A stretch of 64,000 nt of DNA. It comes from a virus. Positions 3,667 to 46,100 of the stretch are shown here, in pieces. Where the stretch lies: positions 108,908-172,907 of the IMG/VR virus record IMGVR_UViG_3300029787_000002; one strand, written 5' to 3'. How positions within the stretch are numbered: the stretch's first letter is position 1; every line of letters starts with the position of its first letter. The translations under genes were made by a program, and so were the position numbers. The notes beneath the pieces are model-generated. The model was not told the origin of the DNA. It worked only from the letters and a program-made list of their open reading frames with translations, and searched no databases.

Positions 3667-4340
3667 AAAAAATTATTGCAGCATTGATGACAACATGTCT
3701 TGCAACAGCACCAGTTATGGCAGACCCTATTGGAAAGGAGGACTACTATAGTAACCATTCCATGGGATGTATGCTACTTGGTGAATGTAGGGATGATGTG
3801 AAGGAAGTGCATACTTTGTTGGATATCTCCTCAAATTATGACAACCCTGAATCATTTACTTCAGTGGCACAAGAGTTTAACAATATGCTTGTGTCATTGA
3901 ACCAAGTGGGAGTGAATGTATATCTTGCTGATGAGAAGTATTTTCCAGTAGGACATCGAGGTGTCTATCATACTGTGAGTAATAATTTCTTTTTAAACAA
4001 AACTTTCATGAGTCGTCCTCATGTTTTGATGAGTGTGATGCGTCATGAAGGATGGCACGCTGCACAGGATTGTATGGCAGGCACGATTGATAATAGTTTG
4101 ATTGCTATTATCCTACCAGAAGAAAGTGTTCCTCAGATGTGGCAAGAGATGGCACGCAGGACCTATGCATTTCAACCAGGGGCAATTCCTTGGGAGAAAG
4201 AAGCAACTTGGGCAGGTAGAACTCAAGGCATGACTGCTAATGCACTTGCTGCATGTTCAACTGGTGCGATGTGGAATGTATATAAACCTACCCCCTTAAC
4301 CAAAAAGTATCTAGTCGAACAGGGGTATATGATTGAATGA
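3663..4340 (+). CDS. Exported zincin-like metallopeptidase (HExxH)
   Basis: Signal peptide MKKIIAALMTTCLATAPVMA; MRHEGWHAAQDC; downstream WEKEA glutamate. Confidence 0.65.
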   Translation: MKKIIAALMTTCLATAPVMADPIGKEDYYSNHSMGCMLLGECRDDVKEVHTLLDISSNYDNPESFTSVAQEFNNMLVSLNQVGVNVYLADEKYFPVGHRGVYHTVSNNFFLNKTFMSRPHVLMSVMRHEGWHAAQDCMAGTIDNSLIAIILPEESVPQMWQEMARRTYAFQPGAIPWEKEATWAGRTQGMTANALAACSTGAMWNVYKPTPLTKKYLVEQGYMIE

Positions 4341-4468
4341 AACTACCAAACTGGCAGCACCATTCAAAGAAGGAGCAAAAGAGGCATCTTAAACCTCAAG
4401 CACTTCGTGCTGCCAAGGAACGGTTGAAAGCATTAAAAAATAAATTGGGAGTGTGGCGGAATAGGTAG
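4337..4468 (+). CDS. Small basic protein (43 aa) whose 3' end overlaps the tRNA
   Basis: MKLPNWQHHSKKEQKRHLKPQALRAAKERLK...; ATGA overlap with upstream gene. Confidence 0.65.
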   Translation: MKLPNWQHHSKKEQKRHLKPQALRAAKERLKALKNKLGVWRNR

Positions 4469-4530
4469 ACGCACCAGACTTAAAATCTGTTGAGCATGTG
4501 CTCGTGGGAGTTCAAGTCTCCCTACTCCTA
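4447..4530 (+). tRNA. trnL-UAA: tRNA-Leu (anticodon UAA), CCA not encoded
   Basis: Acceptor GGGAGTG/TACTCCT, D-arm TGGCGGAATAGGTAGACGC, anticodon loop CTTAAAA, long variable arm GAGCA-TG-TGCTC, T-loop TTCAAGT. Confidence 0.95.
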
Positions 4531-24074: not shown

Positions 24075-24697
24075 GTATTGAAATGTTCTGCCCTCAGTGG
24101 TATTACGTTGAGAGCGTACCTGTTGAGTATCAGGCACAAATTGAAAAATTATTTGAACCGCAGATCAGAGACGAGAGTCTATATGTGCAATCCCCTTGGG
24201 ATTGTAACTGTTTATCTACATTTCAATCTAAAAGTAATTTAGATCTACCTTGGAATGACTGGTTAGAATGTTGTAGGTCAACACTTGACAAGATGATTGA
24301 CGCATTGCAACCTAAAATTGATATCGAAGTAGTACCTCAGGAAGCATGGGCAAATCTATATACTAAAGGTATGCATCAAGAGTACCATACACATAGTTTA
24401 CCAAACTGTAATCTAAGCATGTGTTACTTGTATGATGTACCCGAAGGTGACCCATTGTTTCGGTTCGTTTATAATGGACATGATGACTATAAAAGGTCAG
24501 GTCTAACCGAAGCATTCGATATGCCCATACAAACGAGAATCGTCCCTAAGGCAACTAAAGGAGACCTTATTATATTTCCCTCGCATTATCCTCACTTCGT
24601 TGCTCCTAACCCCTCTGATGCCCCTCGCATCACATTCTCAGGGAACCTGTACGTTGTGCCAAACAACAAAGCGTCACAGGACACTCCCACACCATAA
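24071..24697 (+). CDS. Putative 2OG-Fe(II) oxygenase (TIGR02466-like)
   Basis: WANLY..G.HQEYHTH, GDLIIFPS..PHFV.P, RITFSGN. Confidence 0.85.
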   Translation: MSIEMFCPQWYYVESVPVEYQAQIEKLFEPQIRDESLYVQSPWDCNCLSTFQSKSNLDLPWNDWLECCRSTLDKMIDALQPKIDIEVVPQEAWANLYTKGMHQEYHTHSLPNCNLSMCYLYDVPEGDPLFRFVYNGHDDYKRSGLTEAFDMPIQTRIVPKATKGDLIIFPSHYPHFVAPNPSDAPRITFSGNLYVVPNNKASQDTPTP

Positions 24698-24712
24698 AAT
24701 TCATGCTATGAT
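24656..24712 (+). promoter_or_regulatory. Early promoter module copy 1 (palindrome plus -10)
   Basis: GTGCC-AAACAACAAAGC-GTCAC (24656-24677), 29 nt, TATGAT preceded by TGC. Confidence 0.7.
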
Positions 24713-24908
24713 TACTCCTGTAAACAAACCTCAGACTTCTATCGGCATCATTAAGTCGATCAAGAAGGCACTCAAAGAGGCAGACAATGACCCCTTTCTT
24801 TATTCAATCGATGAAATCAAAACTCTCAAACGCAAAAAGCGTGAATGGCAAGACCTTGAACGCAGGGCGAACATCGAAGAACGCAATGGGTTCGGTCAGT
24901 ACCTATAA
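24708..24908 (+). CDS. Hypothetical protein (start uncertain)
   Basis: IKSIKKALKEADNDPFLYSIDEI..LKRK...NGFG. Confidence 0.6.
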   Translation: MITPVNKPQTSIGIIKSIKKALKEADNDPFLYSIDEIKTLKRKKREWQDLERRANIEERNGFGQYL

Positions 24909-25026
24909 ACTGGACAATGTAAACATCGAGTACAATAGTTCATTCGATTGTGTTCAAGAGAACGAGGATGATTGGGTATCTAGTTTCCTCGGTTCTGAAT
25001 ATGATGTAGTCAATTCACTTTATTAA
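24886..25026 (+). CDS. Small acidic protein
   Basis: ...ENEDDWVSSFLGSEYDVVNSLY; start reassigned. Confidence 0.5.
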   Translation: MGSVSTYKLDNVNIEYNSSFDCVQENEDDWVSSFLGSEYDVVNSLY

Positions 25027-25028
25027 AT

Positions 25029-25202
25029 ATGTCAGAGTCAACTTCCTATCATATCTACTACGATGATAAAGTTCTATTCAAGAACTTGAGTCTAGAAGAG
25101 TTCACATTGATCTGGAAGAAACTCTATCGGTCATACCATACTGATAGTATTACTTACTCAATTTGTAAGGATGACTTATGTACCTTAGAACAGAGTTATT
25201 AA
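25029..25202 (+). CDS. Hypothetical protein (57 aa, not in track)
   Basis: MSESTSYHIYYDDKVLFKNLSLEEF...EQSY. Confidence 0.7.
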   Translation: MSESTSYHIYYDDKVLFKNLSLEEFTLIWKKLYRSYHTDSITYSICKDDLCTLEQSY

Positions 25203-25391
25203 ATGAGAGTCAGACTGGAACCTCGAACAGGTAATCGAGAAGCACAAGAAATGTTCAGGTATCATTTACATCGTGATGGTTATGTTCATGTGAGCGAACG
25301 TCTCGATAGATGGTATGTTTTTCACCCAAATTCCAATACAGGTTTTTGGGTACACCCAACAAAAGACCCTAATTGGATTGTACACAAATGA
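25203..25391 (+). CDS. Hypothetical protein
   Basis: FWVHPTKDPNWIV C-terminus. Confidence 0.7.
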   Translation: MRVRLEPRTGNREAQEMFRYHLHRDGYVHVSERLDRWYVFHPNSNTGFWVHPTKDPNWIVHK

Positions 25392-25549
25392 ATCCCTACA
25401 AAGTCATCTACTGGAAGGACGGTTCACTTGATCGCAAAGAGATCATCACCTTTGGTGAAGAGTCCACCGCTAACTTGATGGACTTGTTTGAAGAGAACAT
25501 TAATTATGATGTACATTGTGTGAAATCCCAGACATTACTGACTAAATAG
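25388..25549 (+). CDS. Hypothetical protein (53 aa, not in track)
   Basis: ATGA coupling; MNPYKVIYWKDG... Confidence 0.6.
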   Translation: MNPYKVIYWKDGSLDRKEIITFGEESTANLMDLFEENINYDVHCVKSQTLLTK

Positions 25550-25621
25550 TATCAGTCAGGAGAACAAGATGATCTAAAACTCCATGATATTATGGAAATC
25601 AAATTCAACAAGTGAGGTTCA

Positions 25622-25789
25622 ATGCACAACATCTTTACACAGAAACAAACTCCAGAGTTTACAAACTTTAACGCTGAAACATACGAAAACGAGTTATGGA
25701 ATGACTACTTTGAATGTTTAGTCGATTCTGAAAACTTAAGACACAACCAATCAGCAAAGAAAATCTGTAGATATCTAGTTCCAGAATAG
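25622..25789 (+). CDS. Small protein with DYFECL...KKICR motif (55 aa, not in track)
   Basis: GAGG RBS; MHN...NDYFECLVDS...KKICRYL. Confidence 0.7.
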   Translation: MHNIFTQKQTPEFTNFNAETYENELWNDYFECLVDSENLRHNQSAKKICRYLVPE

Positions 25790-25844
25790 GACACTCTACA
25801 TACTGTCACAAACCCCCACACAGGGGGTTTTTTTGTGCTATACT
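25788..25844 (+). promoter_or_regulatory. Early promoter module copy 2 (palindrome in inverted orientation, hairpin, -10)
   Basis: AGGAC-ACTCTACATACT-GTCAC (25788-25809), AAACCCCC-ACACA-GGGGGTTT hairpin, TATACT at 25839. Confidence 0.75.
25810..25834 (+). terminator. Intrinsic terminator-like hairpin inside the promoter module
   Basis: AAACCCCC/GGGGGTTT stem followed by T-run. Confidence 0.6.
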
Positions 25845-25865
25845 AAGGGTACTGACGAACGAAGT

Positions 25866-27095
25866 ATGAATTTGAGACCCCATCAGCAAAGAGCATTCGA
25901 TAGGATGCAGCAGTATGATATCGGTAAGATCATCGTACCTACTGGTGGCGGTAAGACTTATATTATGATCGCTGACTTGATCGAGCAGATGCAGCAGAGA
26001 TATGACACTACAACTGTAGTTGTTGCACCTCGTATCCTATTGGCAAACCAATTGTGTGCAGAGTTCACAGAGTTTGTAAGCGATGCTGATATTATGCACG
26101 TCCACTCAGGTGAGACTCACTATACATCTAGCACTAAACCTGAAGATGTCAAACTATTTGTAAGCACACATACTAAGCATAAGATCATCTTTACTACATA
26201 TCATTCATTACATCGTGTAGTTGATTCAGATATCACTATTGATACTGTATACTATGATGAAGCACACAATGGAACAGGCAAAAAGTTCTTTGAAGGTGTG
26301 AATGGTATGGTTCACAATGCTACTCGTAGGTTCGCATTCACCGCAACACCTCGCATGGGACGTGGTGTCTCAGCAAATCGTGGCATGAACAACTCACAAG
26401 TGTGGGGACAGACTCTAGAGAACGTACCCGCAACTGAATTGATCGAAGCAGGTGCTATTCTTCCACCTCAGATCGTACCTTTTGAGACTGATAGAGTCAG
26501 AGAAAAGCATAACGCACATGATGTTGACGCTGAGAACCTCAAGGACATTCTAAGTTCACTTGATAGTCAGCAGTCAGCAAAAGTATTAGTGGCAGCACCT
26601 AGTTCAAGGATCCTTGGGTTCATGTTGGGTAGAACTGACATCCTAGAGTATCTCAAAGAGAATGGATATGATGTACTACACATCACATCTAAGTTCGGTG
26701 CTATCATCAATGGCAAGAAAGTAGGACGTGAAGAGTTCTTCAATACTCTTACAGAGTGGGGCAACGATGACAATCGTAGGTTCGTTGTTTTCCACTATTC
26801 TATCCTATCTGAAGGAATCAACGTCAATGGTCTCACTCATACTGTATTGTTGAGGAATCTACCTATCATCGAAATGGCACAAACTATCGGACGTGTTATC
26901 AGAGTGCATAAGGATGACCGCAAAGCAGTTGAATCTGGTAGTATACCCTCTGGTGCATTCCACCTCTACAAGAAGGGTGCAGGTTATGTAACTGTACCAA
27001 CTGGATTTAAGTATGGTGATCGCATTGCAAAGAGACTTCAGAGCGTGGTAGAGTACATTTTTGTGGAAGGCATCCCACCTCTTTCATATTGCTGA
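25866..27095 (+). CDS. SF2 (DEAH, type III Res-like) helicase
   Basis: LRPHQQ, PTGGGKT, DEAH, FTATP, LSEGINV, QTIGRVIR. Confidence 0.9.
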   Translation: MNLRPHQQRAFDRMQQYDIGKIIVPTGGGKTYIMIADLIEQMQQRYDTTTVVVAPRILLANQLCAEFTEFVSDADIMHVHSGETHYTSSTKPEDVKLFVSTHTKHKIIFTTYHSLHRVVDSDITIDTVYYDEAHNGTGKKFFEGVNGMVHNATRRFAFTATPRMGRGVSANRGMNNSQVWGQTLENVPATELIEAGAILPPQIVPFETDRVREKHNAHDVDAENLKDILSSLDSQQSAKVLVAAPSSRILGFMLGRTDILEYLKENGYDVLHITSKFGAIINGKKVGREEFFNTLTEWGNDDNRRFVVFHYSILSEGINVNGLTHTVLLRNLPIIEMAQTIGRVIRVHKDDRKAVESGSIPSGAFHLYKKGAGYVTVPTGFKYGDRIAKRLQSVVEYIFVEGIPPLSYC

Positions 27096-27098
27096 TGT

Positions 27099-27156
27099 GT
27101 GACAGTTGACAAAGTGTCACAACATCCCACACAACACCCCAAATCTTTGTTATATT
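27099..27156 (+). promoter_or_regulatory. Early promoter module copy 3
   Basis: GTGAC-AGTTGACAAAGT-GTCAC (27099-27120), 30 nt, TATATT preceded by TGT. Confidence 0.8.
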
Positions 27157-27162
27157 AATAAT

Positions 27163-27317
27163 GTCGAAACAAACCAACCTAAGACTTTCAAGGTTGCGGA
27201 CACCAGAGGTCTAATGGATTTAATCCTGATCAACGAAGGTTAATTTATTAATCTGTCTTGGCGATTCCTTTGCATACGCATTTAAATCGAACTTAAGCAG
27301 TTGAGTTTTGTTTCGAC
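27163..27317 (+). ncRNA. Candidate structured non-coding RNA (about 155 nt)
   Basis: Starts at the predicted TSS; perfect 11-bp closing stem GTCGAAACAAA/TTTGTTTCGAC; only a 17-codon ORF from ATG 27161. Confidence 0.55.
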
Positions 27318-27338
27318 CCATCATAATCACAGGTCACT

Positions 27339-27536
27339 ATGGTCACACTACAACTGACAAAAGATCAATTTTTTGAACTGTATGATGCAGTCAAAGATCT
27401 ACCAGACATCTACAAATCCGAAGCACTTGCGGGTGAGTATGAATTGGATGCAGCACACTATGATCTTTTTGATGCAGTCAAAGTAATGGATAAAATTGCT
27501 CTTAATCCATCGGTCGAAATCTTTCTAGGAAAATAA
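27339..27536 (+). CDS. Hypothetical early protein
   Basis: ORF track. Confidence 0.7.
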   Translation: MVTLQLTKDQFFELYDAVKDLPDIYKSEALAGEYELDAAHYDLFDAVKVMDKIALNPSVEIFLGK

Positions 27537-27578
27537 CCCTATGTCTAATAAATATTACAACAGTCAGGGTTTACTACG

Positions 27579-27806
27579 ATGAGTAAGATCAAAGATGTCA
27601 CCAACTCACCAGAAGACTGGGAGGATTTTTGGTACAATTCAGAGGATGGATTTTACTTTGATTCTGTTACTGGTTTATCCTACCAGATCGAAGGATGGGA
27701 TGGGCAAGAGGACAGTGCATCAGAGTATCAAAAAAAGATCTATCTGGAATCTACCATCGCTGAATTGGAAAGTCAAGCAGATGACCCCATGGGAATCGGC
27801 AAGTGA
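27579..27806 (+). CDS. Acidic Trp-rich small protein
   Basis: DVTNSPEDWEDFW; AATAAATA late box at 27547-27554. Confidence 0.7.
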   Translation: MSKIKDVTNSPEDWEDFWYNSEDGFYFDSVTGLSYQIEGWDGQEDSASEYQKKIYLESTIAELESQADDPMGIGK

Positions 27807-27807
27807 T

Positions 27808-27865
27808 GTGACAGTTGGCAAAGTGACCACTAAACCCCCACAGAGGGGTTTTTCTATGGCATACT
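27808..27865 (+). promoter_or_regulatory. Early promoter module copy 4
   Basis: GTGAC-AGTTGGCAAAGT-GACCAC (27808-27830), AAACCCC/GGGGTTT hairpin, CATACT at 27860. Confidence 0.75.
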
Positions 27866-27890
27866 AGTAATAGTTAAACAAACAACACAC

Positions 27891-28094
27891 ATGGACATCG
27901 CTCTCGAACGTGAATATGCTATCGACAACATGGCAGACTCACTCTTCGATCAAATGAAAGATTTGATCAAGCAAGATCAGCATAATGATGCTATTGCAGT
28001 TTGTGAAGAGTGGTTGGTAGATGGCAAAGACCCTCAGGATGGCGATTATAAGTTTATCTTCCTTAAGAACTTCACACTAAACGAGGACAACTAA
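27891..28094 (+). CDS. Hypothetical early protein
   Basis: ORF after AC-rich leader. Confidence 0.75.
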   Translation: MDIALEREYAIDNMADSLFDQMKDLIKQDQHNDAIAVCEEWLVDGKDPQDGDYKFIFLKNFTLNEDN

Positions 28095-28095
28095 A

Positions 28096-28341
28096 ATGAA
28101 ACAATCCGAAAAGGACTTCCAAAACTGGATCGAATCATGTCCCGACCTACTCAGGTTTAGACTTGAGTATGTTGACGTGAGAGCAGATGTTGAAAACGTC
28201 ATCACAACTTACGAATACGAATTTGCGGATGACGAGACTAGAAAAGAGGTGACTGAAGCAGTCATCGAAGATTTCTATGATCAAGATTGGTCAGACCATA
28301 ACGAATTCATTGCACACCTATTAGACAGGAGACTCTCATGA
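28096..28341 (+). CDS. Hypothetical acidic early protein
   Basis: GAGGA RBS; FQNWIESCP. Confidence 0.75.
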   Translation: MKQSEKDFQNWIESCPDLLRFRLEYVDVRADVENVITTYEYEFADDETRKEVTEAVIEDFYDQDWSDHNEFIAHLLDRRLS

Positions 28342-28568
28342 AAACTATCGATGTTCCTTTTACCTATGATCAATTAAGTGACGTGATTTACTATCTTGAG
28401 TGGAAGATCTCAGAGATCAACGAAGCAGGATGTGATCTCGAATTTCCAGAGATAGAGAACACCTTACAACAGTTACAGGAGACTCAGGACAGACTCAGAG
28501 TGAGAACTGACGAAGATTATCAACTCATGATGAACAATAGAGCAAAACAACCAACAGCAGAGTGGTAG
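28338..28568 (+). CDS. Hypothetical early protein
   Basis: GGAG RBS, ATGA coupling. Confidence 0.75.
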   Translation: MKTIDVPFTYDQLSDVIYYLEWKISEINEAGCDLEFPEIENTLQQLQETQDRLRVRTDEDYQLMMNNRAKQPTAEW

Positions 28569-28569
28569 T

Positions 28570-28627
28570 GTGCCAGTTCAATTAGTGTCACATGACCTAT
28601 TGTAATAGGTCTCTGATGCTTTATAAT
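28570..28627 (+). promoter_or_regulatory. Early promoter module copy 5
   Basis: GTGCC-AGTTCAATTAGT-GTCAC (28570-28591), GACCTAT/ATAGGTC hairpin, TATAAT at 28622. Confidence 0.85.
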
Positions 28628-28652
28628 ATTAGTATAGCAACGGAGATCACAC

Positions 28653-28958
28653 ATGCACAACTTCAAACAATTTCTTGACTATTGTGAATCATTCTACAGT
28701 CCAGAGCATCCTGACTGTTTATATCCTATCGATGGATTGACTAGGGGTGAGTTAGCACTTGCAATTCTCAACTATCTTGACTTATGTGCAGAGGATGAGA
28801 ATGTTAACTGGGGTGATGGTGATTCACTAGACAGAGAGAGAGTCAGAGATTTTGTTATTGAGCGTAGAGCAATTGATTACAACAGAATTCAGAAAATTTT
28901 AGCAATTGAAGATGCTAAGAACCCAGTAAGAGGTCTCAACTTCACAGGAGGACAGTAA
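28653..28958 (+). CDS. Conserved cyanophage early protein
   Basis: FLDYCESFY...LYPI...WGDGDSLDRERVRD. Confidence 0.8.
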   Translation: MHNFKQFLDYCESFYSPEHPDCLYPIDGLTRGELALAILNYLDLCAEDENVNWGDGDSLDRERVRDFVIERRAIDYNRIQKILAIEDAKNPVRGLNFTGGQ

Positions 28959-28959
28959 G

Positions 28960-29067
28960 ATGCAGAAAATTATCATCGAAGACATTACTGACTACAAAAA
29001 GTTACAGGAATGGATTGACAGTCTTGACCCTAGACTTAAAGAACAATACGAAAAGGAGGACAACTAA
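28960..29067 (+). CDS. Micro-protein (35 aa)
   Basis: GGAGG RBS; MQKIIIEDITDYKKLQEWIDSLDP. Confidence 0.55.
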   Translation: MQKIIIEDITDYKKLQEWIDSLDPRLKEQYEKEDN

Positions 29068-29068
29068 A

Positions 29069-29236
29069 ATGAATCAATTTAAAGTCGAATGTTCAGAGGT
29101 TAATTACTTCACAGTATTAGTTGAAGCAGAAACCGAAGAGGAAGCAAGGAAACTTGCTAACGCAAACATTAACTCATTTGAAGTCGAAGATGAGTATGTT
29201 TCAGAGTGGACTATTGAAAGTGTGGAGGAACTGTAA
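29069..29236 (+). CDS. DpnD/PcfM-like small acidic protein
   Basis: AAGGAGG RBS; FKVECSEVNYFTVLVEAETEEEARKLA. Confidence 0.65.
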   Translation: MNQFKVECSEVNYFTVLVEAETEEEARKLANANINSFEVEDEYVSEWTIESVEEL

Positions 29237-29523
29237 TGAGTTACGACAATTCAAAAGAGGTAACAATCAGGTTATCTAAAAGGGAACTCGGAATTCTCAA
29301 CATGTATACCTCTGGTTTATTTGCTCGCATCGATAGCGATGTAACAGAGTGGGGTAGTTCATGCACTGGTCATGATACAATCGAACATGACTATTTTGGT
29401 AAGGATGCAATTCTCGGATTAAGAAAAGAAGTCAAGAATGCAGTAGACTCATTCTATACTCATGAGAATGATCTAAGACTACCAAAAGATCACAACGGAA
29501 ATCCAAACCCTTGTGCCAGATGA
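29236..29523 (+). CDS. Hypothetical early protein
   Basis: GGAGG RBS; stop codon lies inside palindrome copy 6. Confidence 0.75.
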   Translation: MSYDNSKEVTIRLSKRELGILNMYTSGLFARIDSDVTEWGSSCTGHDTIEHDYFGKDAILGLRKEVKNAVDSFYTHENDLRLPKDHNGNPNPCAR

Positions 29524-29570
29524 TAAAGTGGCACAAAACCCCTCGCAATGGGGTGACCTCTTGCTATAAT
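29513..29570 (+). promoter_or_regulatory. Early promoter module copy 6
   Basis: GTGCC-AGATGATAAAGT-GGCAC (29513-29534), ACCCC/GGGGT hairpin, TATAAT at 29565. Confidence 0.85.
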
Positions 29571-29597
29571 AAAGACATGAACACACAAAGGAGAATT

Positions 29598-29795
29598 ATG
29601 GAAAAAGGTTTAAACATCGAAGTCACATCTTCACAGTATGAGTATCTCTATGAAGTACTCATGGAAGCATACTCAAACGATGTTGCAGAGCAAAAAGACT
29701 GGGATGTCCAGACTTTCGATAACTTACTTGACAATGTAATGAATGCGAAGTCAACTTACTTGTCAGATTCAACTCGTGGGATTCTAAAACGATAA
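29598..29795 (+). CDS. Hypothetical early protein
   Basis: AAGGAG RBS before ATG 29598. Confidence 0.75.
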   Translation: MEKGLNIEVTSSQYEYLYEVLMEAYSNDVAEQKDWDVQTFDNLLDNVMNAKSTYLSDSTRGILKR

Positions 29796-29864
29796 TTCTT
29801 ACATTCTTAATTCCAGTGGGTGACTACCTACACCCTATAAACATTTAATTTTATTCCTTTTATT

Positions 29865-30026
29865 ATGAGTCATTCAGTCAACACAGAAATCCTTGAAAAC
29901 CTTTACGATGAGATCTTAAATGAACTCAGTTTCAAGAATATCCAACTCGGTATTATGCTACCGATGCATAGACTTGAAGAGATCGCAGCAGATCACGCAC
30001 AAAAACGTTTTGAAGAGTTAGGTTAA
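29865..30026 (+). CDS. Hypothetical early protein (53 aa, not in track)
   Basis: MSHSVNTEILENLYDEI...AQKRFEELG. Confidence 0.7.
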   Translation: MSHSVNTEILENLYDEILNELSFKNIQLGIMLPMHRLEEIAADHAQKRFEELG

Positions 30027-30080
30027 CTCTTTAATAACGATTCTTCTAATTAAAACTTCACTTCAAACCTTTAATAAGAC

Positions 30081-30254
30081 ATGAACACAATTTTCGCAGC
30101 AATCACCGAGGGAGTTCCATTTTATGACTTCCCTAAAAGTCCAATTTTGGTGCTTGGGTTTTTTGGCATTCTCGTGGCAATGGTCACAGTATACACAGTT
30201 AATAAAGCATACTTCAATTCACCTTTTAACCCTGACAATCAAAAGAGATCATGA
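30081..30254 (+). CDS. Small membrane protein (57 aa, not in track)
   Basis: PILVLGFFGILVAMVTVYTVNKAYFNSPFN. Confidence 0.7.
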   Translation: MNTIFAAITEGVPFYDFPKSPILVLGFFGILVAMVTVYTVNKAYFNSPFNPDNQKRS

Positions 30255-30421
30255 TCACACAAAAGAAACCAACATTCGCTGAACTTGAGAAAAGATGGCG
30301 AGAGCATAATCATGAGTATAGCGAAGAGTTTACTCAAAACATCTACGATGCTCACATTGCAATTGCTGAACAGTTCCCATTCTTATATGACAGTTACGGA
30401 TTCCCAAAGGAGGACTACTAA
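30251..30421 (+). CDS. Hypothetical protein (56 aa, not in track)
   Basis: ATGA coupling; MITQKKPTFAELEKRW. Confidence 0.65.
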   Translation: MITQKKPTFAELEKRWREHNHEYSEEFTQNIYDAHIAIAEQFPFLYDSYGFPKEDY

Positions 30422-30562
30422 ATGAAATTTACAGAAGACCAAATTGAATACCTTAAAGAGTGTGTTTCATTCCATTATGAAATGAACTCTGACATCAAAG
30501 AACATATAATTGACATTAACGCACAATGCAGCAAAAAACTATGGGAGTGTGCCAGTGAATAA
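30422..30562 (+). CDS. Hypothetical protein (46 aa, not in track)
   Basis: AGGAGG RBS; stop inside palindrome copy 7. Confidence 0.65.
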   Translation: MKFTEDQIEYLKECVSFHYEMNSDIKEHIIDINAQCSKKLWECASE

Positions 30563-30607
30563 AGTGTCACAACATGGGTTTCTTTTAATCTCATTATTGT
30601 TTATAAT
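30549..30607 (+). promoter_or_regulatory. Early promoter module copy 7
   Basis: GTGCC-AGTGAATAAAGT-GTCAC (30549-30570), 31 nt, TATAAT at 30602. Confidence 0.85.
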
Positions 30608-30633
30608 AATAGTATAAACAAACAAAGAACATT

Positions 30634-30876
30634 ATGAACGCAACTTCAGTATACACAGAACCAGTAAACAGAATCAAGCAAAGAATTCTGTTTGATGACA
30701 ATCTACAGAATATGGCATGTTGCTGTTGTGACTGGGCAGAATTCGTTGTTGAGATCAACGAGTGGGGAATCGAGAGACTTGGAGGTGTCTGGTTCGATGA
30801 TCTTTCAGAATTCGATATACAGCACTTAGACATCTTCATTAAGGCAGAAAACGGTTACATCAGAGAGGAGGTTTAA
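30634..30876 (+). CDS. Hypothetical early protein
   Basis: ORF directly after promoter. Confidence 0.75.
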   Translation: MNATSVYTEPVNRIKQRILFDDNLQNMACCCCDWAEFVVEINEWGIERLGGVWFDDLSEFDIQHLDIFIKAENGYIREEV

Positions 30877-30879
30877 ATC

Positions 30880-31095
30880 ATGTGTAACAATCAACTTAAA
30901 AAGTGGGAAACAGGAACAGAGGGAGAAACATGGGATTTTGGTTATGTTGACAATCCCAAGCAATTTATCGAAGAGGTTTTTGAAATCGCATTTGGGGATG
31001 ATGCAATCAACCGTAACTATTCGATGGGCGAAGTTTTAGATAGACTCATGGAATTTAGTGATGATGCATTACGTTATAATGGAGAGTTAGACTAA
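30880..31095 (+). CDS. Conserved cyanophage early protein
   Basis: FIEEVFEIAFGDDAINRNYS..EVL..L.EFSDDAL. Confidence 0.8.
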   Translation: MCNNQLKKWETGTEGETWDFGYVDNPKQFIEEVFEIAFGDDAINRNYSMGEVLDRLMEFSDDALRYNGELD

Positions 31096-31253
31096 TGACT
31101 AATGTTCCAATCAGTTTTGACGAAGCATATCAGATGACGAGATTATACGATACTCTCAGAGATATGGATTTTGAACTTACTGACAATCAAGTGGCAGTAT
31201 TTGATAAATTACTTGATATTCGTAAATATGTCAAGTCAGAGGGTGCCAGTTAA
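31095..31253 (+). CDS. Hypothetical protein (52 aa, not in track)
   Basis: MTNVPISFDEAYQ..LYDTLRDMDFELT; stop inside palindrome copy 8. Confidence 0.7.
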   Translation: MTNVPISFDEAYQMTRLYDTLRDMDFELTDNQVAVFDKLLDIRKYVKSEGAS

Positions 31254-31300
31254 TTATGTGTCACACTCTACCTCGCATCGGTGGTTCAAACCGCTATAAT
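31243..31300 (+). promoter_or_regulatory. Early promoter module copy 8
   Basis: GTGCC-AGTTAATTATGT-GTCAC (31243-31264), 30 nt, TATAAT at 31295. Confidence 0.85.
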
Positions 31301-31307
31301 AAAGACA

Positions 31308-31362
31308 TGAACAGAGCGTTGCTCACTTTATCAATTGCTGAGGGATACCCTCGCTTTGTTCA
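31308..31362 (+). ncRNA. Candidate 5'-terminal structured RNA / leader
   Basis: 11-bp stem TGAACAGAGCG/CGCTTTGTTCA beginning at the predicted TSS; inner GAGGG-ATA-CCCTC. Confidence 0.45.
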
Positions 31363-31389
31363 AACAATTTTCACTTTACTTAAAATCAA

Positions 31390-31569
31390 ATGAGAATGAC
31401 TAAAGTTCAAGTAGTTTCACAATTTCGAGAAATGCTTCGTGAGTCAGGTGCAAACCTTAGGGGCGATTCAATTGCTAAACGTGAAGCATTTAACGATTAT
31501 GTTGACATGCTTAACAAAGATGGCGATGTAACCGACTGGCAAGCATACAACTGGAGCAACCCATTCTAA
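31390..31569 (+). CDS. Conserved cyanophage early protein (59 aa, not in track)
   Basis: MTKVQVVSQFRE...DSIAKREAFNDYVDMLNKDG.VT.WQ..NWSNPF. Confidence 0.8.
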   Translation: MRMTKVQVVSQFREMLRESGANLRGDSIAKREAFNDYVDMLNKDGDVTDWQAYNWSNPF

Positions 31570-31691
31570 TGACAATCACAGAATATAAAGAACTATGCAA
31601 ACAAAATAAATTGCATATCGGTGAGGAAGTCCCTGAAGACAATGACACCAAGAACAACGAAGACGAAACAAACACTTATCAAGGAGCATAA
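31569..31691 (+). CDS. Micro-protein (40 aa)
   Basis: TAATG coupling; MTITEYKELCKQNKL. Confidence 0.5.
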   Translation: MTITEYKELCKQNKLHIGEEVPEDNDTKNNEDETNTYQGA

Positions 31692-31695
31692 ACAC

Positions 31696-31902
31696 ATGAT
31701 CATCGAAAATTTCAGTAGAGAGCAATTTATTTTACTCTCAAAGGCACTTGATAATTATCGTATTTACATGACATCAGAAGAAGAAACTTTATCTGAAGAA
31801 ATTTTAGATAATGTCTTTTATCCATCTATTGGAATGAGTAAACCGAGAAATACCGCAAAGGTTACAAGTATAGCGGAAGCGATCCGCAAGGGACATAAGT
31901 AA
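31696..31902 (+). CDS. Hypothetical protein
   Basis: AAGGAG RBS before ATG 31696. Confidence 0.7.
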   Translation: MIIENFSREQFILLSKALDNYRIYMTSEEETLSEEILDNVFYPSIGMSKPRNTAKVTSIAEAIRKGHK

Positions 31903-31921
31903 CTATACTAACCTAAACAAA

Positions 31922-32134
31922 ATGAGTTGGAATCTTATCCCTTGGAGCGAACAAACAACGAACGTAATGGCAACAATGACCTATGAAGACTTAATCACTA
32001 AGTTACAACAATTGAACCCTAATCAGTTGAAGAAAAATGTTGCTATCTATGATGAACATTTAAATGAGAAGGTATTAGTTCACAATGAATTAATCTTCTT
32101 TGATAACAATCAGTTCCCCTATTTAAAGATTTAA
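31922..32134 (+). CDS. Hypothetical protein
   Basis: MTYEDLITKLQQLNPNQLKKNVAIYD. Confidence 0.7.
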   Translation: MSWNLIPWSEQTTNVMATMTYEDLITKLQQLNPNQLKKNVAIYDEHLNEKVLVHNELIFFDNNQFPYLKI

Positions 32135-32380
32135 ATGAACTTCCAAAAAGGTGACTATTACTCACTAAATGACTTAAATGGATGGGTTAATTTCATCGAT
32201 AGTAGTTATATCACTCTTGTTATAAATGAGTGGACTAAATGTGATGAATTAGCAAAAGGTAGTCGTAGTAATGTACATCAAGTGCAGTTACTAGTATACC
32301 CTCACCAATGGAAAGATATGGTGAAAAGTAATCGAAATCGCTTTGAAGATGGTCTACTAAATAACACTCATGAGAAGTAA
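32135..32380 (+). CDS. Hypothetical protein
   Basis: GWVNFIDSSYITL...LLVYPHQW. Confidence 0.75.
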   Translation: MNFQKGDYYSLNDLNGWVNFIDSSYITLVINEWTKCDELAKGSRSNVHQVQLLVYPHQWKDMVKSNRNRFEDGLLNNTHEK

Positions 32381-32507
32381 TCCGCAACCTATTCTTAATA
32401 GCGAGTTTAACACATTTTGGACTATATGTAAAGAACTCGTGGTAAGTACTTGGGAGTTGTATAGAACAACTGTAAGTAACAAAGTAACAAGAATAAGGGA
32501 AGATTAA
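32370..32507 (+). CDS. Small hypothetical protein (45 aa, not in track)
   Basis: ACTAAATA late-like box at 32356-32363; MRSNPQPILNSEFNTFWTICKEL. Confidence 0.5.
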   Translation: MRSNPQPILNSEFNTFWTICKELVVSTWELYRTTVSNKVTRIRED

Positions 32508-32579
32508 CGAATGTTGTTAAATATTAAAATAAATCTATTGTTGTTAACAATACCGAGATTAATTGCTCAGGTAATTGTA

Positions 32580-32608
32580 CTCTTAGCACGCAACTTACCG
32601 ATTGTCAA
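32580..32608 (-). promoter_or_regulatory. Possible leftward sigma70 promoter
   Basis: Minus strand TTGACA-17 nt-TAAGAG with extended TG; -10 is imperfect. Confidence 0.4.
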
Positions 32609-32633
32609 TGATAGTCAGCAAACACAGATTTTC

Positions 32634-32663
32634 TTGACAGATTATAAACAATTATGGTATAAT
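32634..32663 (+). promoter_or_regulatory. Sigma70 promoter
   Basis: TTGACA-18 nt-TATAAT with extended TG. Confidence 0.8.
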
Positions 32664-32699
32664 AACTCTGTAAGGGTTCAGAAATTCCTCTAAGTATCA

Positions 32700-32900
32700 A
32701 TGCTAAGTAACATCAAAGCACCTCAGAAGTACATGGAGTTGTTAACACTTTGGGAGGAAGGATTATGCCCACTAAATGAAGGTATTGCTTTGTTTCAGTT
32801 CTTGTTAGATACTGACCAATGTTGGGAGGATGAGATATTATCTAATACAGCAAGTTATATGGTTATGGAAGGATTTTGTTATTACGTTTACACCCCTTAA
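32700..32900 (+). CDS. Hypothetical protein
   Basis: LFQFLLDTDQCW. Confidence 0.7.
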   Translation: MLSNIKAPQKYMELLTLWEEGLCPLNEGIALFQFLLDTDQCWEDEILSNTASYMVMEGFCYYVYTP

Positions 32901-32909
32901 TTAACAACA

Positions 32910-33119
32910 ATGACCCAAAAGATGCTCTATAAAGTTTATAACAATGAATGTGAACTTATAGGGGAGTTTGTATCAATTTACGATATGGAACATTTTATGG
33001 ACGATGTTAGAAACTCACGGGGAGAGAGGTATAAAGAATTGCCCAGATTATCGGTATTTGATTATATTAAATCGATCGGTTACTATATGGAAATTAATTG
33101 CCCTGTGACAGTTAAATAA
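32910..33119 (+). CDS. Hypothetical protein
   Basis: Stop inside palindrome copy 9. Confidence 0.7.
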   Translation: MTQKMLYKVYNNECELIGEFVSIYDMEHFMDDVRNSRGERYKELPRLSVFDYIKSIGYYMEINCPVTVK

Positions 33120-33162
33120 GTGGCACAATAGGGGTTGTAAGGGGTTGCCCACCTGCTATAAT
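33105..33162 (+). promoter_or_regulatory. Early promoter module copy 9
   Basis: GTGAC-AGTTAAATAAGT-GGCAC (33105-33126), 30 nt, TATAAT at 33157. Confidence 0.85.
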
Positions 33163-33187
33163 TAATGTATACCAAACAAAGGGACAC

Positions 33188-40116: not shown

Positions 40117-43100
40117 ATGAACATTAATAAGGTTTCCCAGTCGATTGAGTCTCAATCACCAGACTTTATTGGATCAGAATATCCTCTGTTTAATAAGTTT
40201 CTTGAGTATTATTACAAATCTCAAGAGAAGACTGGTTTAGGGCAAAATATACTTAATAACTTCCTCCAGTATCTTGATATCGACAAACTCGATATCGGTA
40301 TCCTAGATGGTGCGACAACGCTTGTAGAAGCGATTACAGATAGTTCAGATAAGATCGTTGTTGAGAGTATCAACCCTTTCCTAGAAACGAATGGGTCTAT
40401 TCTAGTTGGCGATGAAGTCATATATTATGAAGGTGTAGATAAATCTCCAGAGATCTCACTTTCTCCAGGTATTTCATATGAACAGGTAAAACTTAAGTGG
40501 ACTACTCTTGCTAGTCTTATCAACAGTTTTGATGGTACCACTACAGCATTTGCAATAACATCTCAAGACAGTCCAATTGCTCCCCCTTCAGCACAGCATT
40601 TGGTTGTTTCTTTGTATGGTAATATTTTAGTTCCAAATATTGATTATACAGTTAGCGGATCAAATATCGTATTCACTACTGCACCTAGAACCAAAATTCC
40701 TGCTGATGATGCAGGTTCAACTTACATCTTCTATCTTAGCGGTTTTGTTGAGAACACCATTTATGGATTAGACAATCTTTCTGGTGCTTTTGGTGATGGT
40801 AAGAAGCAATTCAGTCTAACTCGTAATGGAGTTAAGTATGAACCAGAAGTTGAAGAGTATTTGAATGTCATTTATGATAATCGTCTCTTAGTTCCTAAAG
40901 TTGATTACTTTATTGATGAAGATCAATTTGTATTTAAAGTAGCACCCCTTAACGGTCGTTTCTTATCAATCCATGCAATTGAGGCACCTATTCCGTCTTT
41001 CGGTAGTGGTGCAGTTGGTTTTTCTCGTATTAATGATAATGGACTTCTAACAAGTGTCTCATCTAGTGCTATTGGTACTGGATATCGCTTTGAATATCCT
41101 CCTCAAGTTAGCATTGACTCTGAGCAAGGTTCAGGTGCTGCTGCAACTGCCCTTGTTAACGGTTTGAAGTCAATCACCCTACTAGAGGGTGGAAGGGGTT
41201 ACAGCACGACTAACCCTCCTGTTGTGCAGGTTCAATCTCCTACTAAAACTGGTTCTAGTCAAGCAACTATTAGTGCAACGGTTACTGACGGTTCAGTTAC
41301 TGCACTGAGCATTACTAACTCTGGTTCTGGTTATACCTTTACTCCTAGAATTACTTTTGTTCAACCTGGTGGGGCAAAACTGGGTACTCCAGTTATTACT
41401 AATGAACAGGTAACATCAATCCCTGTTACTGACGGAGGTTTTGGTTATACTACTGCTCCAACTGTTTATATTGATGAATCAACTGGTTCAAACCCAATTA
41501 AGGCAGCATTAAGAGCAAATCTTACTGAAGGTAAGGTTACTAGCATTTCAATCTTAAATGCAGGACAAGGATATACAACTGTTCCTAGAGTTGCGATTGT
41601 AGACCCTGTAGGTGCACAAGTATTACAAACTGTTGTTGATGGTGATGGTAGAGTCATCAGAATCGAATTACTTAATGGTGGTGGCGGATATGACGATGTT
41701 CCTTCTGTTTATATTGTAGATAATAGAACTAACGGTGGTACTGGCGCAACTGCGGTTGCTTCTATTTTCAACGGTCGAATTACTGATCTTAATATTACTA
41801 ATTTTGGTAGCGGTTACTCTGCTGCTAATCCTCCTGAGATTGTAATCCAAGCACCTCCTCAGGCAAAAGCATCTGTTGAAATTGGTCTTAATGAAGTCAC
41901 AGGTTTCGTAGTTACTGAGTCAGGTAAAGGATACAACAAGGCAGCATTTACTGGATGTGCGAGAGCAGCATCTGGTATTACTAAGTACACTGAAACAGGT
42001 AATGCAGTATTCAGTAATAACACTACAGCAGCATCTGCAGCGGTTGGTTCAAGCGTTAAGTGTTTGGATGCACTATTTGTTAAGAGACTACTAGACAAGT
42101 ATACAGAACAGTTCTTACCTGATGTTCCAGAACTTGACTACTCTAAGATTGATGTTCGTACATCGATCAAAACTATTAAAGATTTTTATTCATCTAAAGG
42201 TACTTCGTTCAGTATTGCTTATCTGTTCAAGTTACTTTACGGTGAAACTGTTACGGTCACATATCCAAAAGACCAAATCATCAAACCCTCTGCAGCAACT
42301 TGGTCTATCGACACAATTTTGCGTGCAACCCTAGTAAGTGGTAATGCTGAGAATATTAGAGATGGTTTGTTAACTCAAGAAGCAGATATTGCAGATCCTA
42401 ATGTAACTGCTGCAAGTGCCTTAGTTGAAAACTATATTTCAATCAAAACCTCTGATGTAGAGATCTTTGAACTTGTTCTTTCAGAAGAAACTATTGTTGG
42501 GACGTTTACCGTACCATATAAGACAAAACTTGCTGAACCTCTCAATCAAACTGATTCGATCATTACGGTTGACTCTACAATTGGTTGGCCAGAACGAAAT
42601 GGTGAGTTTGTCATCGGTGGTGGTACAACAACTGAACTTGTACAGTATAAAGAGAAATCACTCAACCAGTTCATCGAATGTACTCGTTCTGCAAACGGTA
42701 TTGTAGAAGACTGGGATTCTGCAACTCAAGTTGCTTCTAACTTCACGGTATATGTGAATAGAGGAACTACTCAAGAAGTAGTGTTAAATGTTGTTGGTAT
42801 TGTTGATGCACAGCAAACTGTTCTTACTGACACTGGTTCATACTACTTACCTGGCGATAAACTCGCTGTGTCTAAGTTAGGTGGAACTAGTATTGATCCT
42901 CATTTAACTACATGGTTATATAACGTCAAAAAACTTATCAATGTCTCTACAGTTGTCTTTGGAGGTGTTAATAATAGGTTTGCAACTATTACTTGTTCAA
43001 ACAATCACGGTTTATTGGTTGGTGATCAGGTTACAGTTTATGGTGCAAACCCAATCATCTATAATGGAACATTCCTTGTAACATCTAGGGATAGTGCAAC

Positions 43101-46100
43101 AGTATTCCAGTATCAGTTACCCCAACCCGCAACTGTGGTACCACAGGGTAACATTTTAGTATCTGTTGACTTGAACAAAGGTAAGTCTACAAGTACTGCT
43201 GTATTGAATGCTATTGGTCCTTATACGACTAACGTTCAAAACTCATTCTTCAATACAAACTATGCATACCTAGCATCTACAGGTATTCCAAACTATAATA
43301 TTGGTCCTTTCCCAGGATCTGCTCTGCTTCCAGGAAACCAACGTAAGTTGAATCGTTTCCCGATTACTTCTACAACAATTTCTACAAAGAATACTGTTTC
43401 TCCAGGTCCTATCGGAACTTGGGTTAATGGCGTCTCTATCTGGTCTTATAAGTCAACTCTCAAGAAAACCTTTGGTGCTGTAACTAGCGTTGCTATTACA
43501 AATGCAGGTAAAGAATATGATGCTGCCTCTCCACCTGTATTAACTATCAGTGGTGGCGGAGGAACTGGTGCAACTGCTGCAGTTGTTGTTAACGGTTCTG
43601 TTAATGAAATTACTGTATCTACAGGGGGTTCTGGGTTTACTTCTTCTCCTCTAGTCTCTATCGTTGGTGGAGGCGGTTCTGGAGCGTCTGCAACTGCTAT
43701 TATTACAAAAGGGGTTGTCTCTAGAATTCTAATCAACTCAGGTGGTAGTGGATACACCTCACAACCTTCTATTACTGTTGTTGGTGGCGGTGGTACTGGT
43801 GCTGCAGCAACTGCATCTGTTCGTGGTCCTATTCAGTCTGTTTCCGTTGGATCAGGTGGTAGTTCTTATACTTCTACTCCTACGGTATCGTTAAGTTCTG
43901 GTAGTGGTGCTGTTGCACAGGCAATTGTACAGAATGGTCGTATTATTTCGATCGCTATTATTTCTGCAGGTTCTGGATATACAACTGCTCCTGAAATTAC
44001 TATTCAGGGTGAAGGTTTTGGTGCTGTTGCTAGAGCATCTATTGATACTGATGGTGAAAATGCAGGTAGAGTTACAAGCATTTCTATTATTAACCGAGGT
44101 ATTGGATATCTTCAAGGAACAACTATCATTAACTTGAACTCTGTTGGTTCTGAAGCAACTTTTACTGCAAACGTATTTGAATGGACTTATAACTTACAAT
44201 CAACTACTACATTTGATACTGCTAAGGGTTCTGTCTTTGAAGGATTTAATAATCAGTATGGTGGTGAGTATGCTCACTTATCAAACCCTCAAACACTAAG
44301 ATATATTCTTGGTGACAACTTATTTGAAAATGCATCAGGCGTAATCAAAGAACAGGAAGATGGTTTACTACACTCTCCTATTATTGGTTGGGCATTTGAT
44401 GGTAACCCAATTTACGGTCCTTATGGTTACTCTGATCCTACTGATCAGTCATCTGCGATCCAAAAACTTAATACTTCATATAGATTAAAGACAAATCTTG
44501 TTTATAATGTAGATTCTAACCCAAATCCTGTTAGAACAGCAGGTCCTTTACTATCTGCTGAGGCAGCAGGTAAATTTGTTGAGGACTATGAGTATGTGTT
44601 CGGTCTTGGTGCATTAGATCAGTATAACGGTAGATTCTGTAAGACTCCTGAGTATCCCGAAGGTAGATATTCTTACTTCGTTACTATTGATGCAACTGAC
44701 GATGGTAATCCATTATTCCCTTATGTTATGGGTCCTAGTTTCAACTCTGTTGTTGATTCTTGGAACTTGAATGCTAGTGCACAACAGCAAAATATTCCTA
44801 CTGGTGTTGTTAGATATCGTGATCCTTATGAGAATGTTGATATTGACGTTGAGAGGGCACCCAATGCTTCTACAAACGCTCTAACACTAGAGAATGGAGA
44901 TGTATTACTATTTGATATAGAAGACGAAGATAGAAGTGGTGTTATTGAAGCGGATGAGACTGCTGATCCCGATCAGGTCTTTGAAGAGTCACCATTACAG
45001 TTATTTGATTACTTCCCCAAAGTCAAGTTTGACTCTAAGGTTGATATTGAAGTTGAAACAACTACTAAGTTTGAAGATGCTTCTGTAACTGGATTTACAG
45101 TTGAAAACCCAGGTATATCTTATCAGGTTAATGATAGACTAATCTTTGACAATACTGATACCGATGGTAGTGGTGTTTCTGCTCGTATTTCTAGAATTAA
45201 AGGTGAAGCGGTTGAAGCATATACATTTGAAAATGTAAGTGGTAATAACTTCGGTGTTCTTACTACAGTCAATCCTCACAACTTACAAGCAGGTGATAGT
45301 GTCTTTATTGACTACACTCCTGTCATGGACAGCACTAATAAGACATTTGTTGTTCGTCAATTTAAAGGTATTGAAGAGATTGTAGTTAATCAAACTGGAT
45401 CTGGTTATAATACTGATATTCCTCCTACTATCATTATCGATGGTAATGGAACTGGTGGTAGACTTGAAGCAGTTGTAACTTCTGTTGGTTCTATTGAAAA
45501 TGTCAATATTATCAACTCTGGTTATGGATACACAAGTAATCCTAGAGTTATCCTTTCACATCCTCAAGTCTTCAAAAAAGCAGACTACTATGTTGCTAAG
45601 TTTACTAATAGAAACTATGTGAGGATCAGTGATGTATACATTAATGATTCTAAAGAAACTTATATTTGCGGTAAAACTTATGATGCTGCATCTAATGATG
45701 TTGCATTCATTGCAAAACTCTCTGCTACAGGTGTTAAGGAATGGGAAGCATCCTTAGAACTTCCAGGTGGTCAACAAGACTCTGAATTCCTCAAGTTGTA
45801 TGTTGATGGTAAGAGTATCTGGGTTGTTGGTCAAAATAGTCCAAATAGTGTTATTCTTTCCTCTTATAACCCTGATGTTATTCTTTGTAAGTATACTGAA
45901 GCAGCAAACGGACTAAGTGCAGCATTAACCTTCCAAAAAGGTTATGCAGGTATCTCTGGTTCTACTCGTGGTGACTTTATCACTGCTATTAAGAAATACT
46001 CTGATACTAGATTCATTATTGGAGGATATACCAATACTAACTCTGGTGCACCGTATGATGCTTTCATTGCATCTATCGATACTAGTGGTAACTTTGCAAT

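Follow-up and report, generated by a model that had tools for sequence, protein, structure and literature searches.

Orphan structured RNAs of T4-like cyanophages have been described as the manA, wcaG and PhotoRC-II motifs (RF01745, RF01761 and RF01717; Weinberg et al. 2010, PMC2864571), and a 2023 catalogue lists more than 10,000 candidates for structured RNAs in viruses (PMC10690425). A large share of the Prochlorococcus and Synechococcus in the ocean is killed by T4-like cyanophages, whose early takeover programme consists mostly of small genes without assigned function. Beyond these phages, 6S RNA and the Y RNAs are abundant, stand-alone, rod-shaped RNAs that sequester proteins; paired ends held in a long closing helix and a conserved internal loop as the functional site are what we take to be their resemblance to the RNA described here.

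The locus of interest lies at 27163–27317 (+ strand) of a 64,000-nt stretch of DNA, hereafter the window. This stretch closes a virus record of 172,907 bp (IMGVR_UViG_3300029787_000002) judged 99% complete. By DNA similarity the source virus is a T4-like cyanomyovirus, with P-RSM1 as its nearest cultured relative (75% DNA identity) and 309 cyanophage records matching its helicase region; elsewhere, the window carries a single ORF of 6,606 aa at 40117–59937, a giant structural gene. As read from the sequences of its relatives, 27163–27317 is the gene of a conserved, promoter-anchored, co-varying, rod-shaped RNA encoded on the + strand. The search against Rfam that the preliminary description had suggested returned no RNA family for it, the sole match in the window being a tRNA at 4447–4530. 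The element was unmatched in Rfam 15 at the gathering score (manA, wcaG, PhotoRC, Cyano-1/Yfr2, 6S, Y RNA, ribozymes and riboswitches included), gave only chance matches of 10–13 bits at E-values up to 10, and its 83- and 93-nt relatives matched nothing in Rfam either. Our search of the literature on cyanophage non-coding RNAs, early promoters and structured RNAs found no description of the family, although the 2023 catalogue (PMC10690425) may contain it. The family is large, belongs to T4-like cyanomyoviruses and was found in no catalogue.

Early-region setting, promoter and coding potential

The element sits in the early region, a series of small + strand genes split into cassettes by a palindromic box. 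The copy of this box upstream of the element (TGTGACAGTTGACAAAGTGTCACA, 27098–27121, + strand) lies outside the RNA. Its pattern, TGTGMCAGT-N5-AAGTGKCACA, has 13 matches in the window against 0.12 expected, and nine sites are spread over 24655–33127 (e.g. 27098–27121, 27807–27830 and 30548–30571). Downstream of the box there is often a terminator-like hairpin followed by a -10 box, and many relatives carry the same box upstream of the RNA promoter. The two variable positions of the box show no co-variation, which suggests a protein-binding DNA site rather than an RNA hairpin.

An extended -10 promoter element, TGtTATATT, can be read at 27148–27156 on the + strand; given its TATATT box (27151–27156) with TG extension (27148–27149), the predicted +1 is G27163. 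This is the first base of the closing stem, in agreement with the earlier proposal that the stem starts at the predicted transcription start site: the closing helix (P1) begins 6–7 nt after the -10 box, a spacing kept in nearly all of 46 relatives. In these relatives the -10 box reads TATATT or TATAAT, often together with TTGCAT or TTGACA 17 nt upstream, or with a TG extension.

The perfect 11-bp stem said to close these 155 nt is indeed present, with GTCGAAACAAA at 27163–27173 and its reverse complement at 27307–27317, the sole two exact copies in the window. Taken alone, however, it is not beyond chance, since the window contains three perfect inverted repeats of at least 11 bp within 200 nt, compared with 5.2 ± 3.0 in 100 dinucleotide shuffles. 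Folding of the 155 nt gave z = -3.0 for the + strand and -2.3 for the - strand. The window by itself therefore proves little, and the weight of the argument rests on conservation and covariation in relatives. Two further stems were observed in the same region. One, at 31308–31362, likewise begins where transcription is predicted to start (GAACAGAGCG... / ...CGCUUUGUUC), with a GAGGG/CCCUC hairpin inside it; this stem had no match to the covariance model of the RNA family. The other, a perfect 12-bp inverted repeat (31603–31614 / 31723–31734), spans coding sequence and is probably due to chance, as shuffles give about five such repeats per window.

As previously claimed, we found no credible ORF between the arms. 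The + strand has just a micro-ORF of 17 codons, which begins at the ATG at 27162, and a 45-aa frame that opens with TTG upstream of the promoter; the - strand has a 36-aa GTG frame. A micro-peptide, whether from a leaderless MSKQT... ORF starting at 27162 or from a 34–36-aa frame on the - strand, is scarcely credible as the product of this locus, even though 36 of the 40 aligned family members have an ATG or GTG overlapping the predicted start and the 36-aa frame is there on the - strand of the window. The start codon of the micro-ORF would lie 2 nt upstream of the predicted +1, its peptide varies from 8 to 41 residues in length, and the invariant core described below is read in all three frames; the - strand frame usually lacks its start, the ATG being present in just 12 of 40 members. 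Both ORFs were rejected for this use of all three frames and this missing start.

Consensus structure and covariation

We aligned 40 distinct members of the family, the window included, anchored on the promoter, and modelled four helices (P1, P2, P2b and P3). From its ends inwards, the resulting rod consists of P1 (12 bp with one bulged U), P2, P2b, a nearly invariant asymmetric internal loop of ~35 nt over two strands, P3 with its 4 bp, and finally an apical domain whose length and sequence are free. In P1, the 5' arm GUCGAAACAAAC (27163–27174) pairs with 27305–27317, leaving U27306 bulged, and the outer four pairs co-vary in relatives (GUCG/CGAC, GGGG/CCUC, ACGA/UCGU, GAG/CUC). A CAAC/GTTG extension of the stem had been proposed at 27175–27178 / 27300–27303; it is present and constitutes P2, with CAAC as its 5' arm, and relatives support it through replacements such as GAUCAA/UUGAUC, CACCU/AGGUG, CGAGG/CCUCG, CUGGAUCGC/GCGAUCCAG and others. 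On the 3' side, 27300–27317 comprises the P2 arm (27300–27303), a bulged A27304 and the P1 arm (27305–27317). Beyond P1 lie a C-rich tail and linker (CCAUC..., 27318–27338) with a weak AGG 5 nt before the ATG of the next gene; in relatives, P1 is followed by a tail reading CCAYC or UCGUC.

Other early-cassette leaders in the window open with (U/A)AAACAAAC (24700–24720, 27873–27885, 30612–30625 and 33165–33175), a start shared with the 5' arm of P1, which may thus derive from a common early leader. The reading of the arm as merely this common leader was rejected: four other cassettes share its words, yet genome-wide enrichment of AAACAAAC is weak (4 occurrences vs 1.06 expected).

Inside the closing helices are two core strands. 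The 5' strand, cUAAGACUUUCAAGGU (27179–27194), is invariant at 12 of its 16 positions across the 40 distinct relatives, and part of it forms P2b (G27183:C27298, C27185:G27297, U27186:A27296 and U27187:A27295); the 3' strand, UUUAAAUCGAACUUAAGCA (27281–27299), is invariant at 15 of 19. The core consensus, UAAGACUUUCAAGGU plus UUUAARUCGAACUUAAGYA, occurs complete in the window at 27180–27194 and 27281–27299. When 64 distinct core-bearing elements were compared, the pair 27183/27298 was G:C in 54 and A:U in 10 with zero mismatches, and the A:U state was found with four different outer helices. P3, formed in the window by UGCG (27195–27198) and CGCA (27277–27280), likewise co-varies, with 11 different 4-bp versions and 43 of 44 cells paired in the same set. 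It carries the variable apical domain, which measures 78 nt in the source phage (27199–27276).

Covariation among homologues, which had been put forward as the check on the proposed RNA, was found. Across the 40 members, 96.4% of the model cells were paired vs 86.1% in shuffles, 16 of 28 model pairs showed changes on both sides, and the covariation score was 0.247, compared with 0.097 for shuffles and ≤0.057 for slid partners; none of 500 shuffles reached the observed values. All 24 modelled pairs form in the window sequence. G.U cells outnumber A.C cells (35 vs 7), and we therefore read the pairing on the + strand RNA. In the window sequence, the family fold reaches -31.6 kcal/mol and the single-sequence optimum -39.3 kcal/mol, a difference of 7.7 kcal/mol in favour of the latter, so that energy minimisation alone would have missed it.

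Two other pairings from the preliminary description fared less well. The TAAG/CTTA extension can be drawn in the window, but it is broken by an A.C in 9 of 40 members, and the rival register with G27183:C27298 co-varies. The CAACCT/AGGTTG hairpin, which would create two mutually exclusive folds, can also be drawn in the window but is intact in only 3 of 40 members, leaving a conserved switch unsupported. A generic riboswitch, which would have such exclusive pairings and downstream genes of coherent function, finds no support either, the downstream genes being unrelated or absent. A local hairpin within the 3' core strand (UUAAR-UCGAA-CUUAA), whose sole variable pair shows no co-variation and is mismatched in 12 of 40 members, may form as an alternative pairing.

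Modularity of the core, closing helix and apical domain

The apical domain ranges across the family from a 6-nt loop to ~130 nt. The 78-nt form of the source phage recurs identically in two metagenome contigs (L172), whereas its closest relative, whose helicase is 98% identical in protein sequence, has an 83-nt minimal form of the element (L008, positions 1060–1142). There, a clean swap has put the hexaloop UUCAGU in place of the 78-nt apical domain, and a compensatory A:U stands for G27183:C27298. The apical domain is hence dispensable. The same relative lacks the 65-aa ORF that follows the element in the window, and 27163–27536 is an insertion-deletion hotspot.

Exchange is also seen below the apical domain. 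The core of class A elements occurs with quite different outer helices as well, without the GAAACAAAC arm, in a T4-like cyanophage context where this was checked. Conversely, at the site where helicase, element and small ORF follow one another, relatives have other interiors enclosed in the same promoter-plus-P1 frame. In P-RSM1, the promoter and both arms are identical letter for letter and sit at the same site between helicase and small ORF, and the interior is unlike that of the window in sequence and length; this class B element is a 122-nt form (L001, positions 2858–2979) that keeps just UUUAAGUCGAAC of the core. Class C elements (L003–L006) are without the core, one being a 74-nt form (L003, positions 3799–3872). 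Core and frame are thus separable modules, and P1 may have a role of its own, beyond the account that we favour below.

Distribution and copy number

By blastn, the element was found in the cultured phages P-RSM4, S-TIM4, P-SSM4, P-RSM3, P-SSM3 and P-RSM1, and it is unannotated in all six. When IMG/VR was scanned for both arms around any interior, 27 stretches matched, with element lengths of 74 to 166 nt and two unrelated chance matches among them. A pattern of the 3' core plus arm matched 52 stretches, and a metagenome scan for the 3' core alone gave at least 120 contig matches. Metagenome matches that had the 3' core without the 5' core were set aside as unrelated chance matches or cut contigs. 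Altogether, the marine viral and metagenome contigs that carry the element number more than 100. One family member, on a metagenome contig (L190, positions 1772–1958), lies directly upstream of a tRNA gene.

The covariance model detected one copy in the window, which is also the only one in the whole 172,907-bp genome, and one copy each in P-RSM4, S-TIM4, P-SSM4 and P-RSM1; a search of the Syn9 genome detected none. The window scored 122 bits (E = 2e-26), a match by construction as it is among the 40 seed sequences, and family members outside the seed scored 112–130 bits. Among 185,579 prokaryote species genomes, scanned for forms with 14–44 nt between the two core strands, there were two matches, a probable phage contig in a MAG and a chance partial match. 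The former (L200, positions 860–984) is a genuine member at 112 bits; its contig is 1,079 nt long, had been assigned to a Weeksellaceae MAG and probably represents mis-binned phage DNA. Apart from it, these genomes yielded no host copy or mimic of the RNA.

These data also bear on whether the locus acts as DNA, as an inverted-repeat mobile element, recombination site, operator or replication origin. Terminal inverted repeats do bracket a variable interior, and close relatives differ by clean indels and swapped interiors at the same site. Nevertheless, we regard a DNA-level element as very unlikely: the element is single-copy in each genome, the promoter stands at a fixed, conserved distance, the internal helices co-vary although a DNA site would not need them, and the excess of G.U over A.C (35 to 7) would matter only for a + strand RNA. 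A miniature inverted-repeat mobile element in particular was rejected on the strength of that same excess and of the one copy per genome in five complete genomes.

Downstream genes and predicted transcript

In the window, the element is followed on the + strand by a 65-aa ORF without a Pfam match (27339–27536) and a 75-aa ORF (27579–27806), both probably on the same transcript; in the closest relative, the homologue of the 75-aa ORF directly follows the RNA. The first downstream terminator-like hairpin, picked out by eye and absent from the list of the consensus scan, would be that at 27834–27853 (+ strand; 5-bp G+C stem, 6-nt loop and U run), inside the next cassette module. With no terminator between the RNA and the two small ORFs, the predicted primary transcript is ~690 nt long unless processed.

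To place this arrangement, we classified the 85 distinct contexts with enough flanking sequence. Sixty of them, including that of the window, have an ORF starting no more than 40 nt downstream, a terminator precedes any ORF in 15, the ORF lies farther away in 9, and one has neither. In P-SSM4, for example, an ORF-free unit is made up of the RNA, a hairpin, the following box and a terminator. The suggestion that the RNA takes the place that a protein gene has in other cassettes applies to some relatives, in which the RNA alone fills the cassette from promoter to terminator; in the window, it heads the predicted transcript with the two small ORFs. The ORFs found 3' of the RNA belong to many unrelated families. 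In 65 of 92 contexts, an SF2 helicase gene (ResIII/DEAD/SNF2) is found no more than 3.5 kb away, before or after the RNA and at variable distance; as this helicase is a core gene of all cyanomyoviruses, we read the proximity as synteny and not as partnership. It occurs also in phages without the RNA, and was rejected as a partner candidate by neighbourhood.

Such contexts bear directly on a rival account, in which the element is a cis-acting 5' leader: its helix at +1 would stabilise the early mRNA, or its core would be an aptamer (riboswitch) controlling the downstream genes. 5'-terminal stem-loops do stabilise bacterial mRNAs, that of the ompA leader being an example, and the helix of the present element begins right at the predicted +1. 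Aptamers typically have a conserved core enclosed by a closing P1, with outer stems that vary, and the short distance to an ORF in 60 of 85 contexts leaves room for a leader role. We nonetheless hold this account to be rather doubtful. The 15 stand-alone contexts have a terminator and no ORF to control, the downstream genes are unrelated small ORFs without assigned function, and the weak ribosome-binding site of the window lies outside the structure. The one alternative pairing put forward lacks conservation, each genome has a single copy among its many early cassettes, and ~35 invariant bases are more than a simple stabiliser would need.

The absence of a terminator in contexts such as the window brings in a further possibility, an RNA-processing element. 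The P1–P2 helix would be a site for host RNase III, as in the T7 early region, or the loop would be a self-cleaving ribozyme, and cutting would free a stable small RNA and a trimmed mRNA. A discrete RNA does need a cut where no terminator follows. P1, P2 and P2b together give ~20 bp interrupted by bulges, a length compatible with an RNase III site, and the sequence of P1 with its bulged U is kept even where the interior of relatives is unrelated. No known ribozyme family matches, however, even at E = 10, and the occurrence of the core with quite different outer helices indicates that P1 as such is not required for the core. We judge a processing element to be unlikely.

RNA-library runs contained 5–10% of the words of the stretch. 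The matches were contigs of the 83- and 93-nt forms of relatives, from four studies, leaving the window's own apical domain uncovered. One such contig starts exactly at 27163, a weak hint at most, and another extends 103 nt further upstream than the predicted start; contigs of this kind cannot prove transcription, RNA ends or abundance. A search for antisense targets of the RNA in its own genome gave best matches of 12–13 nt (E ≥ 0.3).

Candidate function

Even among phages with only ~68% DNA identity between their helicase genes, the core hardly varies; it is far better conserved than the neighbouring protein genes, and the RNA has a strong host-type promoter. A nearly invariant core behind such a promoter, present once per genome and in some lineages only, points to a specific, selected interaction with a conserved component of the infected cell. 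We consider it fairly probable, the identity of the element included, that 27163–27317 is a structured RNA gene acting as a binding or decoy RNA. Host RNA polymerase would make this RNA in the first minutes of infection, from a promoter whose sigma-70-type geometry makes the closing helix begin at the predicted +1, and the fully paired 5' end would shield it from nucleases needing a free 5' end. Set on a rigid helix, the invariant loop could present a recognition surface for a conserved partner, be it a protein, an RNA or a small ligand, and the RNA would act by binding or as a decoy rather than as the regulator of one particular downstream gene. In the source phage, it would be the first 155 nt of the ~690-nt early transcript, either cut out of it or working while attached.

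Of the original proposal of a discrete early structured RNA, the conserved, promoter-anchored, non-protein RNA stands, while decoy, antitoxin-like or anti-defence activity is a guess, the antitoxin reading lacking tandem repeats and a recognisable toxin neighbour. A type III toxin-antitoxin (ToxI-like) RNA was rejected on the same points, the element being single-copy without tandem repeats and the neighbouring ORFs matching no Pfam toxin family. More specifically, and only tentatively, the invariant loop may be the working part of a new functional class of phage RNA, deployed in the first minutes of infection and serving as a decoy for a conserved host factor (e.g. RNase E, RNA polymerase or a defence sensor) or as the core of a new aptamer or ribozyme. 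Were this true, the free apical domain and the swapped interiors would reflect an arms race or modular cargo.

Because cultured carriers exist (P-SSM4, P-SSM3, P-RSM1, P-RSM3, P-RSM4 and S-TIM4) and the minimal form is 83 nt long, the binding partner of the RNA is directly testable. The covariance model would also let the RNA gene be marked in cyanophage genomes, in a region that is now blank or overlapped by spurious ORFs.

Comparison with known RNA systems

The RNA shares with the RNase III sites and 5' hairpins of the T7 early region a helix and internal loop placed after host-type early promoters and before small early genes. In contrast to T7, which has several RNase III sites, the present element occurs once per genome; its core of 35 nt is invariant and its apical domain free to vary. 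On the level of the motif, the loop strands UUUAAG and CAAGG (in P-RSM1-type elements, CAUGG) may be set out, as a tentative lead, in the pattern of the 11-nt GAAA tetraloop receptor (CCUAAG...UAUGG), with G.U replacing G:C. Unlike the receptor, the element has a 7-nt bulge (UCGAACY) directly after this pattern, and its minimal form is without a GNRA loop. The rod-shaped 6S and Y RNAs differ from it in that it matches neither in Rfam and that its minimal form is just 83 nt.

Closest in setting are the manA, wcaG and PhotoRC-II motifs. Like them, the present RNA is known from comparative genomics only, comes from marine T4-like cyanophages, is intergenic and on the gene strand, and is of unproven function, yet it matches them neither in sequence nor in structure. 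Whereas those motifs are tied to particular classes of downstream gene, the present RNA precedes unrelated genes or none; and compared with them it has its own promoter, with the RNA beginning at +1, and a much more invariant core.
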